Part shown: one piece after another, positions 1-57,200 of the stretch
Layout of the letters: each line of letters begins with the position of its first letter
Position numbering within the stretch: position 1 is the first letter of the stretch
From: Vermamoeba vermiformis
Taxonomy: Eukaryota
Direction: 5' to 3'
Assembly: GCA_045837725.1 (NCBI GenBank)
Contig: JBEWZL010000191.1
Span: 62,001 to 126,000, forward strand
Length of the DNA: 64,000 nucleotides
Notes under the pieces: model-generated
What the model was told of the DNA's origin: nothing
Database searches by the model: none
The model's input: the letters and a program-made list of their open reading frames with translations, nothing else
Translations under genes and position numbers: made by a program

Positions 1-1796
1 CACGAGCGACTTCCATAGCGACCATGAGGTCATTGAGCACTTGCATAGGCTCTTGATGTACAGGCGCAGGGCCGTTGAGAATCTTCGCAGCCCAGCTCAT
101 GTCCAAGCACAAGAAGCACATGAAGATGCCTCCCGCGAGCAACAAGCCGAGGACGCCAATGCCCCACCAGAACTGCACCTCGATGAGATAATACTCGCCA
201 GCAGCGGCGCCGATAATTCCTATAGCTGCTTGCTGCGGTAGAGCAAAGCCTAAGAGGGCTTTAGTGATGTGAATTGACTGTTGCGTGAATTTGCTCGATC
301 CAAAGGTGATACATTTGTGATTGGTTCCAACCCAAGCAAGGATCCATATGCCACAGAAAGCTGATAGTATTGTCATGCCCGTGAATGGGAATAATAAGCC
401 AATCGCATGAGGGTTCAAGCAAAAGATGATCCAGCACCAGATCGCTCTGATCGGAGCAGATTCGAGATTTCTGTGACGAGCCGCAGGTGTGTATGCGTTT
501 GCAGAAAAACAACAACAGCAACCCGTATTAGCGTTACAACATCCTTCATAGGCCGAAAACTCCATTGTTTCAGCTGCGCGCTTCATTGCTTTTCGGCGCC
601 AAAAATAGGCTCCAATATAAACTCCAACCATGACTGCCGTCGGTCCTAATGTCAAGACAATAGGCAAACCAGTCTTCTGAACTGTAAGTAAATTAAACAC
701 GATTAGATCCGCAACGAAAATGAAAAGACAGTCTGAAAACTCGAAAATTGAATCAAACTTGATATTTACTGAATGGTACTTACATTCTACTTCGCCAAGG
801 CTCGATGAATTGGATAGACTCTTTAAATAGGTATCAATTGTGACGGCATCCGAGATCAAAGCAGTGGGTTGATCTGTGAGTGAGTCGTACGAGCACGCTG
901 AGAACCAAATTAATTAGCTTACTATTAAATAATATATCTCCTAATTAGAGTATCAATTTACCTCTCTGGAATTCGGTTGGGTAAGATGCACAAGACGGGA
1001 TCGAAGCGAATACAGAGCTATCTAACGTGCAATAATTGCTCATGCAAACCCCACCAAGTGAGATGGTATTAGTACTATATCGAACACCAGTAGTAATGCT
1101 AACTGCCAATAAATTTGAACCAGATGGCGCTGATATAATAATCTCCGTATTTAACGCTGGCAATTCTATTAATACTTGTGTAGTATTTTGAGTAATATGA
1201 ATGGTATGTGGGAACCATCCTTGCGTTGCAACTCTTTCTGCTCTCCATCCATCTGCTCTTCGCCACGTTCTTGAAAATATTGCGCAATAATGATATTCAA
1301 ATTTAATTCCAGTAATTCCAGGAGTAGCTGCATATATTGTGGAATTGGATTCGGCCGTAAGCGTGAAGTGAAGGTTGGAAAAAATAACAAATGAGGAGTT
1401 TGTTGCAATGCCACAGGTCTCTGGTTGTCTAGTAAATGGTACTACGTGGCCTGTTCCCCATACGGTGCATGTTTGTTTCAAATCTGTCACGACTTTGGGC
1501 TCATCGTAACAATCTGGACAGATGTTCGGTCTATTCAATGCAGGAACGACTAACTGAGCCGCTGATACTACTGTCTGCGACATACATGATGCGTCTATAC
1601 ATTGCGTGAACGCTAAACCATAGGCGCAAAAGCCAAAGTTGGTAATATCATCCGGCGACGCGTAACTAAATCCAGTAGCGCTCAAACAATAGTCGTTAAT
1701 GCTTTGCACGAGTGGATCGCATTGACCAGTTATAGCATCTTGCTGAAGTGAATAGCCGACTAAAATAAATAAAAGTACGGCTGTCGTTGTGCTCAT
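1..1796 (-). CDS. RGM/hemojuvelin-like ectodomain protein with ~5 C-terminal TM segments (3' end runs off the window)
   Basis: Exons 1796-962, 897-784 and 681-1 join in frame through GT-AG introns. Signal peptide MSTTTAVLLFILVGYSLQQ; Cys-rich N-region; vWD/RGM-like TCTVWGTGHVVPFTRQPETC; RGM-like FQR|ACSYDSLT; then hydrophobic helices. Confidence 0.7.
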
Positions 1797-2259: not shown

Positions 2260-2751
2260 ATGTCCGACATGTCCGTTCCATCGCTTAAGAATACTTACTA
2301 TGCCAAGTCTGGCGAATCATTGGCCTTTTGGGGCAAAGTTCTAAAAATCGCTTCGGTCACCGTCAGTCTCTTCGGCCTTGACATGATCTTGTTCCAAGAC
2401 GTGCTCAACAAGTTCGTATGGAACAAACTCTTCTTTTTCAACTCCAACTTGCATTTGACGTTCTCATCTGAAACTCAACACTTTATCAACCTGAACTACG
2501 GAGTTATGGGTGCTTTTATGATCGGATGGGGCATCTCGCTTTACCATAACACCAAGACTGCCTTCAGAACATGCGACAAACGCGATTGGAAGGCTTTGGC
2601 AATGTCCGTTGGTGCTTGGTTCATCTCAGACTGCCTTTTCTCAATCAAAATGGGCTACTGGCAAAACGCCGTTTTTAACTTGCCTTTTGGCTTGCTTTTT
2701 GCCGTGCCTTTATTCATGACCAAGAAATACTTTAAGAATGTAGATAAATAG
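2260..2751 (+). CDS. Small ~4-TM membrane protein resembling an uncharacterised bacterial family
   Basis: Intronless 163-aa ORF with hydrophobic helices and motifs YGVMGAFMIGWG, WFISD, NAVFN. Probable 5'-UTR intron near 2187-2239. Confidence 0.7.
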   Translation: MSDMSVPSLKNTYYAKSGESLAFWGKVLKIASVTVSLFGLDMILFQDVLNKFVWNKLFFFNSNLHLTFSSETQHFINLNYGVMGAFMIGWGISLYHNTKTAFRTCDKRDWKALAMSVGAWFISDCLFSIKMGYWQNAVFNLPFGLLFAVPLFMTKKYFKNVDK

Positions 2752-2788: not shown

Positions 2789-5700
2789 TTAAACATTAGT
2801 ACTATTTGGAATAGCACTAGGCTTCAAGTAACTGTTCGGCAAAAACCTCTTTTCGGCGCGATCTTCAATAATTTTTTCGATCTGTTGCAACGAGCTTTGG
2901 AACTCTCGTACAAATGGTCTGACTTGATCCACTTTATCCAAATTGAAGCTCTTGTAGTCACCGAGATGATCGTAGTGAATGTTGCCGTACTCGAATGTCA
3001 TCGCTTGTTTCATTGCCAAATAAGGTGATGGCAAGGCTTGTTTCAACAGCGTTGTTGAGGAGCCACTTTTAGCCGTTGTATCTTTCGTTAATGAATCCAT
3101 AATAGACTCGGAACAGATCATACTGCAGCCAGACATCAAGTTAACTGCGTCAGAGAAGAAATCGAGTTGACTGAAGTGAATGACTGCGTGGTGCGGACCT
3201 GTAAAATGCGGCATTAGAAATTATGACGAAATTTGAATAAGTTTAGATCCGGCACTTACCAGCCAAGAAAATGATTCGAGTGAGCAATCTAATCAAATCT
3301 TTTCTATTATCCAAGATCTTCTTATCGTTCCAAATAAGACCCTTGATATTACCGCCATTTCGGGATTGCAATTCCGAGATCCAGTTCTGAAGTTCCCAAT
3401 CTTTCTTGACGTCCTTATTGTTCTTATAGAACGTGCAGACATAGTCCGTCACGAACTTTGCGAGAGCATTCCAAATAAGCTTGCCGTCGTCTCTGTAAGG
3501 ATAAACTTTGGGGTACTCTGCAACGCCACGCTCGGTCAACGAATAGTCAAAGTCCAAATCAGTCAAGGTCCACTTCTCGTACGCAACTTCAACGAGCTTC
3601 TTCATTTGGTCCTTTGTGGGCGTCATGAACGGAATTTGCGTATTAAACCTCATTTCTGCGCTACTGAAGGCCGTGTGAGCGACAGAAAAGTTCAAATGCG
3701 GCTCTAAAAGCACGTAGACAGGGTGCCTATTAACTCATTAGTATAAGCCCTACTAAACTATTATCAAAAAATTGAGGTACTTACTCTTTGTGCAAATGAC
3801 GCGGAGTAGCTACAGAGAATGCACCAATCATGGCATGTTGTCCGTACTCGTGTGCGCATAAGCCGTGGTGATTGACAGCAGCGACTTGCACGAAGAACTT
3901 TGCCAGTTCCCAACGCTCGCCTTGTCCGGGAGTAAACACGTGATTATTGATCTCGATGGCTACGGGCACTAATGTCTCGCCATCAAAGACCATGAGGCAG
4001 TAAGGAGCTGCAATGAACTGTTTCTCGTCTTTCTTGGTTTCACCGCGTTGAATGGCGTGGCCAATTTGAGTAAAGATCGAGTAATCGACAAAGAAGACGT
4101 TGCCGCTATTAACTTCCGCTTCGAGGTCTGTTCTCTTATTGACTTGTTGCATCAATACGTTGCTAGTAATAGCTTGATTGATGCTTTGTGGCACTTGATC
4201 CAGCTTCGTGATTCTTCTCAACGACATCGGATCCAATCCAGACAATCGCTGCCAGCCAAACACTTTGTCGTTACAATATGATGTAGGTCCAGGAAGCGGT
4301 GCCGTCTTACCAAAGTCGTTCAAAGGCGCTTTGAGCAAAAGCATTAGACTATGAAAAATGGACCTAAAGTGACACAACTTACCATAGCCGCTGCCAGTGT
4401 TGGCTTTTTTCCAAGTCAAATACTTCCAGTAGTACTTGGCGGTACCAGAAGCCAATGAGCGAAGAGCTTTGCTGACGTATTTAATTGACACTGCAAAGTG
4501 CTTGGTCAACGGGAACTTCTTCGGGATACCAACGCACTTGTTGTGGTAGTAGTGATGTTCGTATTGATAGTTATCACGTGTCTTGGCTAATGCTGTCTTG
4601 CGGGTCTGTTTATGCATAGAATATTGGGGCAGTGAAGGTTCAATGCCAGATCCGTCGCTCAAAAGTTCGATGTACTTTGACTTGTTCAGATCCAATGTCG
4701 ACTTTACTGAGGCCTCGGCGATGACTGGAATTTCGTCAATCTCATCGGCAGTTTTGTCTTGCAATGGCGGCAAGCGGAAGAAATCTTCTAAGAACTCGTT
4801 CAAGAAAGTTCTATTGGGGTCATATCGCTCTCGAACAGCCAAAAATTTGCGAATATTTTCGGGATCGTACTTCTCGTACATCTTCTTCGAGTCAATAAAG
4901 ATCTTGCCCCAATGAGGACGCGCGTCGAATTTGTCCATCATCTCTTGTTCAATCTCCACGAAGAATTCTCGGAACTCAGGATTGTATTTTGACGCCACAA
5001 TGTCAATGCAACAGCTTTGTCGGCCTGAAGAGTGGCCCAAGAAGGTCTTAGAGGCATCAATGAATCTATTACTTGTAAGTAAGTAACAACTAAGGTCTGA
5101 TAGATAGCACTTACCGAGCGTGAAGTGCTTGATCCGCAGGGAAGCTATCTTGGTCCTTCAGTTTGCGGATGCGTTCCATCAAATAACATATAGCCTCGCC
5201 TGACCGCTCAAGGTCAACGGAGAGCTCCATATTCCATACATCAGCACCCCATGGATGATAATGGAAGAGACATCTGTTAGCGGTAAGTAACAGGATCTCG
5301 GTTGGTCACGAGGCCTCTACGTACCTTGAGTTTTCAACTCGTTCAGTGACTGGGAATATAAATTCAGCAGGCTTCCATAAGAATTTCAACATTCTTTTGT
5401 TGAAAGTACGGCAAGCAAATGCCCAGATGTAATTGTACATCGCATTCAGTACGCGTCTTAGAAGGTCTCGTAGTTTGTAGTTAATATGAGTATTCTCGGG
5501 CTCATCTGTTCTGGAGCCAGCGAGCGCCATTGCGTACTCGGCCAAAGGGTACCAAAAGATTTCAGTGAACTGCAATGACAAAATATGTTAGCGGATGTGG
5601 TTAGCGAAGAAACTCCGGTTTACCTCTTGTTCTTTCAAAATAGCAGGAATGTTCTTGCAAAATGTTTGAGCGTCGAGTTTTTTATCCACTCTTTTTACTC

Positions 5701-54214: not shown

Positions 54215-57200
54215 TTACAACCGGGTCACTTGTCTGTTGATCATGTACAAGCGGATGCGCACGTACACATCGCAAATGAGCACTATAGTAAATATGTCGT
54301 TAGTAAGTAGCCGACGGGTACAGCACGCTATGTACATACCAGAGATAATAGGGGCAACGGAAGCGCAAGCCAAAATTCCGAAACCTTGAGGTGCATCCAC
54401 GACTTTACCGAAGCTGAGTCCCAATGAAAGCACAAAAGGCACTGTAACTGGACCAGTAGTGACACCAGCACTATAAATAATCATATTAATAGATGTGCTA
54501 ATCGATTGAAGAATTTTGTTAAGATCAAAATCCGGGATCAAGTTTCCAGCCAAAATATTTCCAGCGCAAATTATAGGTTAAAGTTAATATACACGTACCT
54601 GTCCCAAGCAATAGAAACAAAATCTTGGTTGGCGAAGATGGTCAAGCCGCAAGCAATCGTATAACCACCCACCAAGAAGTAGATCAAGGGCAGTTGGAAG
54701 ATGATGAGAATCAAGCCCAACAATGTGCCTGCACCAACACCCAAGGCCACAGCTGAAATCAACAAACGGCGAGTGAACTGGCCCTTAGTCAACTGTTCCA
54801 CCTTCAAGCCCATGACGTTCAATGCAGGTTCAGCCAATGTCGCCAAAACACCGAGCACGAATGTGAAGACGTAGACGATGAACAAACCAGCGTGGTACTC
54901 GAATCTAGGTGAGTTCTCGACGCCCTCGACTTCTTCAAAAGCAGCAGGCAAGATCGAGCCGACTTTGGATCCGAGGCCAGCGAGACCGTAAGTCAAGCCG
55001 ATATTGAATACAATGATACCGACTTGCGTGAATGCCAAGCCCATGAGCAAAACACTCAACGCCGAGTCGATGCATCGTTTCTTGACTTCTTGTTTGGATC
55101 CGGTCTCCACGTCAAACATCGGGTTCGAAGCACGACGACTAGGCATTCTGTTCATATGATAGCCGTAGTCTGAGTCAGTGCTCAAGCGTGCTGGATTTTC
55201 CAAATCAGATTCAATCTCCATCTTGATCTCGTTAGCGCTGCTTTCACCGTCATCAGAGCTCTCCAACTCGACCATCTCTGACGCATTGTGGCCGTTCTCT
55301 TGGTGCTCAATGTCGCTGTCGCCAGTAGGGACCTTGACAGTGATCATAGGGCTCGGGACAGTTCCGTTAGAGGTGGCTTCAGTGATCTCCGAGTGCGCGT
55401 CAGACGGGTCCATGTCGCTGTTAGACTTTGGTGGCTCGGGCTCGTCGCTGGTATTATTCGCACGAATGATTTCGAGCAGTTTTGTTGAAGGGATAGGACT
55501 GCGCAACACGATCTTGAGAATGAAGAACAAAAACAAGGTCAAAGGCATGATGGCACGCAAGCCAAACACGACCTCACGCACGGGTGATTTCTCCCAAGCT
55601 GATTCTTCGACGACAGTGCCGTCTGAGTTGGCAATAATGTGGTCTCGGTCAACACTCAAGTACGTGAACAAAGCCAAAAATTGCACGGCAGTGACGGGCA
55701 GAACGGAGGCCAAAGTGACGACACCAAAACCGGACAAAGCTGATGACGCTTCTTTGTTTTGACTTGTCACACCGACTCCAATAGCCAAAATAATAGGTAC
55801 TAGAAAAAAATTGTTAGGATGGTGTTTGTGACAGGTGTCAAAAAAAGTGTCAAATTCAGACATTGGATCACGTGTCAAAAATAACTTACCAGTGACAGGA
55901 CCAGTAGTCACAGCACCACAATCCCACGCCAAACCAATCAGTGATTGCAAATCTTCTGAGGCAAGGTGCATGATCAACGCCATGAGCAGTGTCGGGGTCA
56001 AAGTTGCAAAGATGAGAGGCTTGAGTGACCAATTCTTAACGAACCGTAAAGTACCCAAAACTATTAACGCCGTCAGTCACTATACATTGCACGAATTTTT
56101 GCAATCTTTGAAGAATTCTTCTTATCAAAAAATTATTCGAAACCTTACCGGTCGCAAAGCCGACACCGAGACCAATGCACAAAACCAAAACTTCACGCAG
56201 CTCCATAAGCACGTAATGCAAATAAGGTGCACGATGGACTTTTACGAGTGATACGAGCGGAGTTAATGATGAAATTGCGGGCTCGGCGTAAGTGACTGCA
56301 ACACCGAGCACAAAAGCGATCACAAGCACCCATATTAATTTAAGCCTATAATGGAAAACAACATGTTAGCTACTGCTCCCCAAGTAAGTACCATATATAA
56401 TATAAATAATGCATTAAGCCCGTATGTCATAGCGGATCTGGTCGTCAAAAGTGACTGCAGACAAAAATCCAATTTTTTCGAAAATGCAGGAAAAACAGAT
56501 ATTCGCAATATTAATAGTAAATATAATTATTATAATTATATTTTAACGTACTTTAATGGCATTTCTTTGCCGACTTGCTCTCCTAACGGCATCAAAGCAA
56601 ATTTGAGACCTTCAATAAATAATACCAAGCCGATTAAGACGGCCACGATACCAAGAAATACAGTGCCAGCACCTATATTATTTAAATATTAATATTAAAC
56701 GGTAAATAATGTACGAGCAAATAATTTATTGACAGAAATTTCGAGATCTGTTTTTTACGTTATTCATCAGCTTAGTATTATCAATATTGTTATTAATATT
56801 TATATTTAATGATAATTATTTAATAGGAAATGTGAATTTGGGGTTGCGTAATAGACCAAGTATGGTTCACAAAAAGTTGCGGATTTGTTTTTTCGCTTAC
56901 CTTCGACAGCTCGTTGGAAAACAATAGCCAAAAATAATACAAAATATAGCGAGATTGGAATAACAATCTTAATTTGTTCGTAGATCTGCAGCAAGAAAGT
57001 AGTTGAAAGTGATCTGATCATCTGCCCGCGGAATTCCAAGACGAGCTAGAAAGATTTGATATTTCTCTACTTGTCGCTGCGATGCTTTGTTGAAAGGCCA
57101 TGGCACTTTTAATGTCGGCAAACCTCGATCGTCCTCTGCAAAAAAAAGTAACGGTAAGTTAAGGGATCTAGATGAGCTTCTAAACGCTAAAATTAATATG

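Follow-up and report, generated by a model that had tools for sequence, protein, structure and literature searches.

A repulsive guidance molecule-like ectodomain on a predicted five-pass membrane protein of the Vermamoeba lineage

Repulsive guidance molecules (RGMs), which act in nerve guidance and iron control, are described only as animal proteins, and their two domains are called unreported in other families in section 2.1.4 of PMC10084454. The N-terminal domain, RGM_N, is reported to fold as a three-helix domain, and an RGD or RGN loop with a leucine and a histidine is reported to grip BMP/GDF ligands (PMC7354924). RGMs carry 14 cysteines according to PMC6370684 and PMC11488336; their self-cleavage is placed between the Asp and Pro of the GDPH motif, and mutations at this site in RGMC cause juvenile haemochromatosis (PMC10880436). 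RGMb is also reported to mediate homophilic adhesion (PMC11488336), and a sponge preprint describes a wreath domain structurally like vWFD and RGM.

In this study, a stretch of 64,000 nucleotides (the window; G000:C191:62001-126000) was analyzed, which carries an RGM-like gene on its minus strand; the product of this gene is called the window protein here. The family to which it belongs was compared with the animal RGMs (RGMA, RGMB/DRAGON, RGMC/hemojuvelin, C. elegans DRAG-1, and Nematostella RGM; PF06535 plus PF06534). Like them, it combines a probable signal peptide and a Cys-rich three-helix N domain with a partial vWD domain and, C-terminal to this, an ACxFD helix; it has 14 cysteines, and its profile alignment with them is collinear. 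Unlike them, it has no GDPH, no RGD/RGN-L-x-x-H loop, and a very short linker between the N and C domains; in place of a GPI anchor it has five TM helices and a 270-residue cytoplasmic tail, and its host is an amoebozoan. The window protein has the build of an RGM head but does not belong to the RGM family. The initial annotation had proposed a candidate non-metazoan RGM-type receptor; the RGM-type vWD domain, the five TM helices, and the amoebozoan host agree with that proposal, which is supported in part. The features of the locus are collected in Table 1.

Table 1. Features of the RGM-like gene and its product within the window (positions are those of the window; residues are those of the window protein).
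Feature	Position	Strand	Basis or remark
Probable signal peptide, residues ~1-19	1740..1796	-	Hydrophobic N-terminus in every full-length homologue
N domain with three helices and 7 Cys, C26-C96, probably RGM_N-like	1509..1721	-	AF2 helices, HHalign, VIA
GTGH replacing the GDPH self-cleavage motif	1446..1457	-	Asp-Pro in 0/8 family ectodomains; Gly and His kept
RGM-type vWD beta-sandwich, C110-C256	1029..1469	-	Fold (on orthologue P0052), Pfam RGM_C in tandem paralogue, profile tests
Exon 1, residues 1-278	962..1796	-	ORF; carries signal peptide, N domain rich in Cys, and vWD core; 3' junction found in X1 and X2
Intron 1, 64 nt, GTAAAT..TCTCAG, phase 1	898..961	-	Skipped in X1 and X2 contigs; same phase in C56 paralogue
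Exon 2, residues 279-317	784..897	-	Stalk, and an ACSYD helix that corresponds to the C-terminal ACxFD helix of RGMs
Intron 2, 102 nt, GTAAGT..TTACAG, phase 1	682..783	-	In frame, without stop; skipped in X2 contig; absent from P0052
Exon 3, in-window part, residues 317-543	1..681	-	Runs on to the stop at C191:61288, residue 780
TM1, ~321-343, then basic RRKAMKR stretch	602..670	-	Hydropathy, positive-inside counts
GCCNANTGCCCC Cys cluster, cytoplasmic loop 1	509..544	-	Kept only in the orthologue group
TM2-TM3 hairpin, ~395-436, invariant LNxHxxG and FTG	323..448	-	
TM4 (458-477), acidic outer loop with invariant YLxExQFWWG, TM5 (491-510)	101..259	-	
Cytoplasmic tail start	1..100	-	Beyond the window: Pro/Gln/Val linker to ~690, helical C-terminal domain 691-780

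The RGM-like gene is genuine: its 780 codons are spread over three exons, and its stop lies 713 bases before the window start. Extending the sequence past the window start, as had been recommended, reached the C-terminus and added 237 residues of cytoplasmic tail. Both introns (961-898 and 783-682) are of the GT..AG type and of phase 1. Although 261 stop-free GT..AG combinations exist at the locus, the exon set 1796-962/897-784/681-> is the form seen in data. Contigs of close relatives lack both introns: the 64-nt skip appeared in two of the four runs aligned to the locus (X1 and X2 contigs) and the 102-nt skip in one (X2 contig, with 82 letters on the short side); loose ends in X3 and X1 read into the neighbouring exons at the same junctions. 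These runs, for which an RNA origin is a guess, are about 3% divergent from the window, and no single contig spans the gene; the 118 raw reads from run X11 are partial, with less than 95% identity, and carry no information on the junctions. The orthologue P0052 is encoded as one ORF of 772 aa on a 2652-nt contig, is 69% identical to the window protein, and has the same junction peptides; clusters found with the membrane part include unbroken ORFs of 772, 753, and 747 aa, each carried by a contig of 2.3-2.7 kb. The splice-skipping contigs, these uninterrupted ORFs, and the junction peptides of P0052 indicate that exon 3 is joined, and the proposed joining of exon 681-1 to the upstream exons therefore stands. 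Retention of intron 2, which has an open frame, is disfavoured by the skip in X2, its absence from P0052, and the stop in the matching C56 intron. Of the 12 strain differences listed for the gene, 10 are synonymous, versus 22% expected at random. The motifs first pointed out (CTVWGTGHVVPFTRQPETC, LIELPALNTEIII, FQRACSYDSLT, and GCCNANTGCCCC) were all found in the minus-strand sequence; FQRACSYDSLT forms only across intron 1.

The 18S rRNA gene of the genome matches both V. vermiformis primers (PMC5057267) exactly, at the published spacing of 502 bp. Judged by this gene, the host is Vermamoeba vermiformis or a very close relative, which bears out the non-metazoan source suggested from the window. 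Vermamoeba belongs to Amoebozoa, in the same order as Echinamoeba. Three family loci were recovered from the genome irrespective of whether the query was the ectodomain, TM part, or C domain: the window gene, a tandem neighbour just downstream, and a paralogue on contig C56 that has the same intron phases as the window gene and a stop in its second intron. The tandem paralogue (L004 4507-6954, on C191 just before the window start) lacks the Cys-rich loop, and in its first exon two single bases are inserted compared with the spliced X1 contig; since a near-identical intact protein, P0001, exists, this lesion is likely an assembly error or specific to the strain. In the family tree, the homologues fall into three orthologue groups, some of them in other samples. 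A search with the membrane part returned only six clusters, all of the five-pass RGM-like family, so the family is narrow as far as the tools see. A word-index search with exon 1 found no longer homologues, which is weak evidence.

The vWD domain of the family is very probably of the RGM type. Its fold gives the superfamily; only the sequence indicates the RGM type. With a cut-off of 27 bits, Pfam RGM_C was assigned to the tandem paralogue (29.8) and to P0001 (28.5), while the remaining members scored 12-21 bits or had no match. Pfam gave no match for window exon 1, none for RGM_N (PF06535) in family members, and none for VWD (PF00094) in any member scanned; the Pfam check suggested for RGM_N, RGM_C, and VWD was thus positive for RGM_C alone, and in the paralogue and P0001 rather than in the window gene. 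Across the genome, Pfam VWD matched at contigs C213 and C126 only. A four-sequence profile including the GDPH-bearing C126 sequence placed human RGMB first among PDB sequences (E 6e-4); the family-only profiles A6, A9, and A10 did not retrieve RGMB from them. The C126-including profile matched 28 library proteins, namely four family members, 20 proteins over the RGM_C cut-off (two of them named animal RGMs), and four repeat proteins; none of the 27 that were scanned was mucin-like. The repeat proteins were dropped (YDG repeats in the three scanned; the fourth is P0006). When a family-only ectodomain HMM was run without filters, four animal-type RGMs scored 24.5-31 bits and six GPI-type proteins (described below) 31-51, compared with -1.1 for the Pfam-VWD exon of the same genome and no more than 1.1 for shuffled sequences (48 listed of 60). 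When the whole ectodomain was aligned with three animal RGMs in HHalign, P was 96.3 and the score 71.7, which none of 100 Cys-fixed shuffles reached (maximum 26), with some selection bias because the animal sequences were found with a related profile. The top match in the ESM Atlas was an RGMA cluster (0.90, 167 shared features). All five full ectodomains have 14 cysteines, 12 of them in the same columns as in three animal RGMs, the first two being of ambiguous register, and the 7-Cys C-terminal pattern continues to the ACxFD helix. As in RGMs, these 14 cysteines would pair into seven disulfides.

For P0052, the AlphaFold2 model (mean pLDDT 52) gave Z 11.6 for MUC5B, 11.5 for VWF, and 10.1 for RGMB in VIA, with the same order in Foldseek; the best structural matches of its vWD domain (MUC5AC, MUC5B, and VWF) are level with or above RGMB. 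In this model, the fold alone does not separate mucins from RGMB. The comparison with RGMB by AlphaFold and Foldseek suggested in the initial annotation supports the vWD fold, but mucins and VWF score as well as RGMB does. The family shares the beta-sandwich of the mucin/VWF/FCGBP VWD domain (PF00094), at Z 10-11.6 and rmsd 3-5.7 A over 117-167 residues; unlike those proteins, it has no Pfam VWD match, it has a single such domain and is membrane-integral, and no TIL or E modules are seen in its sequence.

By profile, the closest vWD domains to that of the window family (HHalign P 98.8, E 6e-17) are found in a set of 21 proteins of GPI type (P0008-P0018, P0020, P0022, P0024, P0026, P0027, P0039, and P0046-P0049). 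Their RGM_C scores of 30-96 bits are far above those of the window family. GDPH is present in all 19 examined, a GPI-like hydrophobic tail in 19 of 21, and 7-8 cysteines from the vWD start in 20 of 21. These proteins are probably GPI-anchored; unlike the window family, they keep GDPH and the hydrophobic tail, and their N-terminal region is beta-rich, not helical. P0039, from Echinamoeba exundans, is the only one with a taxon, and a protistan source for the other 20 is a guess.

The first domain is likely homologous to RGM_N, though this is unproven. All four full-length proteins have a hydrophobic N-terminus, judged by hydropathy only. In the AF2 model of the domain that follows (85 aa, pLDDT 70), built from an alignment without animal sequences, helices span 9-22, 37-47, and 55-68. 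HHalign against three animal RGM_N sequences scored 25.5, compared with 17.8 for the best of 200 shuffles, and against the animal profile five of eight family N domains scored above every one of 56 natural Cys-rich decoys. When the test was reversed, Nematostella RGM alone stood out (27.0), a sequence that had itself been picked with the profile; two nematode-type sequences scored 11, within the decoys. In VIA, the N domains of RGMB and RGMC ranked 9 and 13 of 48,161 chains (Z 4.5 and 4.4), tied with MIT domains and other unrelated bundles, and their identities of 16% and 14% were among the highest shown. Foldseek of the same model returned no match at E 0.001 and no RGM_N. Cys spacings of 8 and 21 match those of the animal domains, whereas spacings of 10 and 4 depart from the animal values of 4-5 and 7. 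RGM_N is a three-helix bundle with three disulfides; HHalign, the helical model, the VIA ranks, and the decoys speak for such a domain here, while Pfam RGM_N and Foldseek were blank.

Two further RGM-type sequences occur in the genome, at C126:42000-42820 (L011 1112-1938) and C247:1047-3090 (L026). They are frameshifted copies, 92% identical, with GDPH intact and no start codon found; these copies are pseudogenes or assembly errors. C247 also has an ACxFD-like helix and about five hydrophobic segments, for which homology with the membrane part of the window family was not detected. When C247 is read through one frameshift, the cysteines of its N-terminal part are spaced 5-20-8-7-21, compared with 4/5-15/21-8-7-21/23 in animals; 21 of 60 shuffles scored as high as its N domain against the profile. 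A metagenome scan with the C126 protein gave one match, L017, which was rejected as a chance bacterial-type match. Nothing was found in a viral structure library or in two scans of viral contigs.

Several hallmarks of the animal proteins are absent. GDPH is replaced by GTGH in the window protein, and it is replaced in all eight family members, so self-cleavage of the family is unlikely. The loop of RGD or RGN with Leu and His is also absent, the aligned position reading CMSQTVVS or similar in 8/8 members. Animal RGMs had been cited at the outset as BMP co-receptors and neogenin ligands; with neither this loop nor GDPH, such a role has no footing in the amoebal family. Searches of the genome for TGF_beta, Neogenin_C, and MH2, run without a positive control, gave no matches. 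There is no GPI anchor; five TM helices and a cytoplasmic tail are on the same chain.

The roughly five TM helices first read from exon 3 were recovered by hydropathy as five hydrophobic segments after the ectodomain, which also occur in three full-length homologues; TM2 and TM3 of the window protein form one merged peak in one profile and are separate in another. Basic loops follow TM1 and TM3 and an acidic one follows TM4, in keeping with a predicted topology with the N-terminus outside and the C-terminus inside. Invariant residues form two clusters, LNxHxxG..FTG and QQ..IG..A..YLxExQFWWG, and N406, H408, T417, S423, Q466, Q467, E484, and Q486 are the invariant polar residues of TM2-5 (9/9 rows); going by hydropathy, most invariant TM residues would lie at the outer helix ends. 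Cysteines in the cluster of the first cytoplasmic loop number 6-7 among orthologues of the window protein, 2-3 in proteins of the C56 group, and 0-1 in those of the tandem group. The putative palmitoylation of this cluster therefore cannot be family-wide. The tail consists of a Pro/Gln/Val-rich linker with HVI repeats and a 90-residue helical domain (pLDDT ~80). Between the window protein and its orthologue, identity is 86% in TM2-5, 84% in the C domain, and 57-62% in the ectodomain; the C domain also has 56-64% identity in paralogues, exceeding the ectodomain. The AF2 model of the TM region is of low confidence (pLDDT mostly <55). Pfam gave nothing useful for exon 3 and the C domain, profiles of the TM part plus tail and of the C domain had no significant match among PDB sequences, the best match of the TM part in the ESM Atlas (0.78) was unnamed, and VIA rows for the TM region were generic helical bundles (Z <=7.6). 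CD47 has one Ig ectodomain on a five-pass membrane core. It resembles the window protein in overall architecture only, as an analogy and not a relative, and it is absent from the listed sequence and fold matches.

Taken as a whole, the evidence favours, with moderate confidence, a five-pass family of the Vermamoeba lineage with an RGM-module ectodomain, acting as an orphan surface receptor or adhesin. The functional part of this reading is somewhat less secure: the window protein is plausibly a receptor or adhesin. Its ectodomain, probably from the same ancestral module as that of animal RGMs, would remain uncleaved on the outside of the cell, and the variable ectodomain may bind an extracellular protein other than BMP or neogenin. 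The ligand could sit on another cell, as a like molecule or a paralogue, or on the surface of prey or substrate; by analogy with the homophilic adhesion of RGMb, binding to itself or to a paralogue is a possible lead. The ectodomain or its ligand may be seated by the residues that are invariant at the outer helix ends of TM2-5, the five-pass core would anchor and relay, and the strongly conserved helical C domain, on its long flexible tether, may recruit a cytoplasmic partner. A single chain would thus bind outside and signal inside, for which an animal RGM needs neogenin.

The main alternative to a receptor or adhesin is that the five-helix core is a channel, a transporter, or an enzyme subunit, with the RGM-like ectodomain as a gate or sensor. 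The strong conservation of TM2-5, the best-conserved region between orthologues, and the eight invariant polar residues in it would suit such a core; the mostly outer position of the invariant residues, the lack of a sequence match to any family or solved structure, and VIA rows that show only generic bundles make it an unlikely one. A slightly better case, though still a doubtful one, can be made that only the vWD domain is of the RGM type and that the N domain is an unrelated Cys-rich helical bundle, the two-domain likeness being due to convergence or shuffling. The GPI-type relatives carry a different beta domain before the same vWD, which is consistent with this, as are the missing Pfam RGM_N match, the low VIA scores tied with MIT domains, and the two deviating Cys spacings. 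On the side of homology are the two matching spacings, the five N domains that beat every decoy, the presence of both listed RGM_N chains within the top 13 in VIA, and the animal-like spacing of C247, with the reservations that this is read through a frameshift and that its profile score is not above shuffles.

A generic mucin/VWF-type likeness with no special tie to RGMs was considered the point on which the ectodomain assignment would turn. It draws on the structural ranking of MUC5AC, MUC5B, and VWF and on the failure of family-only profiles to find RGMB among PDB sequences. It is disfavoured and improbable: Pfam assigns RGM_C and never VWD to family members, 20 of the 28 library matches exceed the RGM_C cut-off, with no mucin-like protein among the 27 scanned, the genome's own VWD exon scores below zero, and the C-terminal cysteine pattern extends to the ACxFD helix. 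The HMM and HHalign tests likewise place the ectodomain beyond generic vWD similarity. Acquisition of the gene from an animal by horizontal transfer, or contamination, is the least credible explanation. The animal range of described RGMs would favour it, and a clade of the family plus animals is not rejected (p-AU 0.088). However, three paralogues lie on two contigs with shared intron phases, the orthologue groups extend to other samples, a diverse GPI-type RGM_C family includes an Echinamoeba protein, and the trees give no resolution in any direction.

In a rooted tree with one VWD outgroup, none of three groupings was rejected, and the sister group to animal RGMs was not discriminated. The occurrence of an RGM-type vWD domain, with a probable RGM_N, in amoebozoan proteins of other architectures implies that the module originated far back or was transferred long ago. 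A tentative reading is that a two-domain module (RGM_N plus RGM_C) served in the common ancestor of Amoebozoa and animals as the ligand-binding head of a membrane receptor complete in itself, and that in animals it was later transferred to a GPI anchor and adapted to BMP and neogenin. If so, the five-pass core with its helical C domain would be a class of receptor not described before, and C247, a broken gene that bears GDPH, would stand as a relic nearer to the ancestral form. No report of RGM outside animals was found among the listings of literature searches, phylogenomic supplements could list protist RGM_C, and some metagenome proteins already bear Pfam RGM_C labels. Finding a vWD domain in a non-animal is thus nothing new; what appears to be new is a five-pass core with an RGM-like head of two domains. 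The amoebal family provides natural variants with which to study the role of RGM before BMP and neogenin existed and, because it folds the domain without GDPH, the purpose of GDPH cleavage.

Some other features were observed in this genome. On contig C213 (L024 1399-2830, minus strand), a Frizzled-like Cys-rich domain, below the cut-off, precedes a classic VWD domain with YGDPH. In the window, a small membrane-protein ORF of 163 aa (2260-2751, plus strand), with no Pfam match over the cut-off, is divergent from the RGM-like gene. From 2789 to ~6190 on the minus strand, ALO (FAD lactone oxidase C-terminal) and lipoxygenase domains share the open frame 3781-5157, which suggests, from its sequence, an oxidase-lipoxygenase fusion gene. 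The nuclear 18S rRNA gene contains a group I intron (L012 2227-2567, contig C11). Inverted copies of a bacterial-type SSU rRNA gene occur at C309:33071-34564 and 55063-56556, and the one examined lies amid many tRNAs; C309 is probably mitochondrial, and the two copies would reflect either an inverted repeat or a duplication made in assembly.
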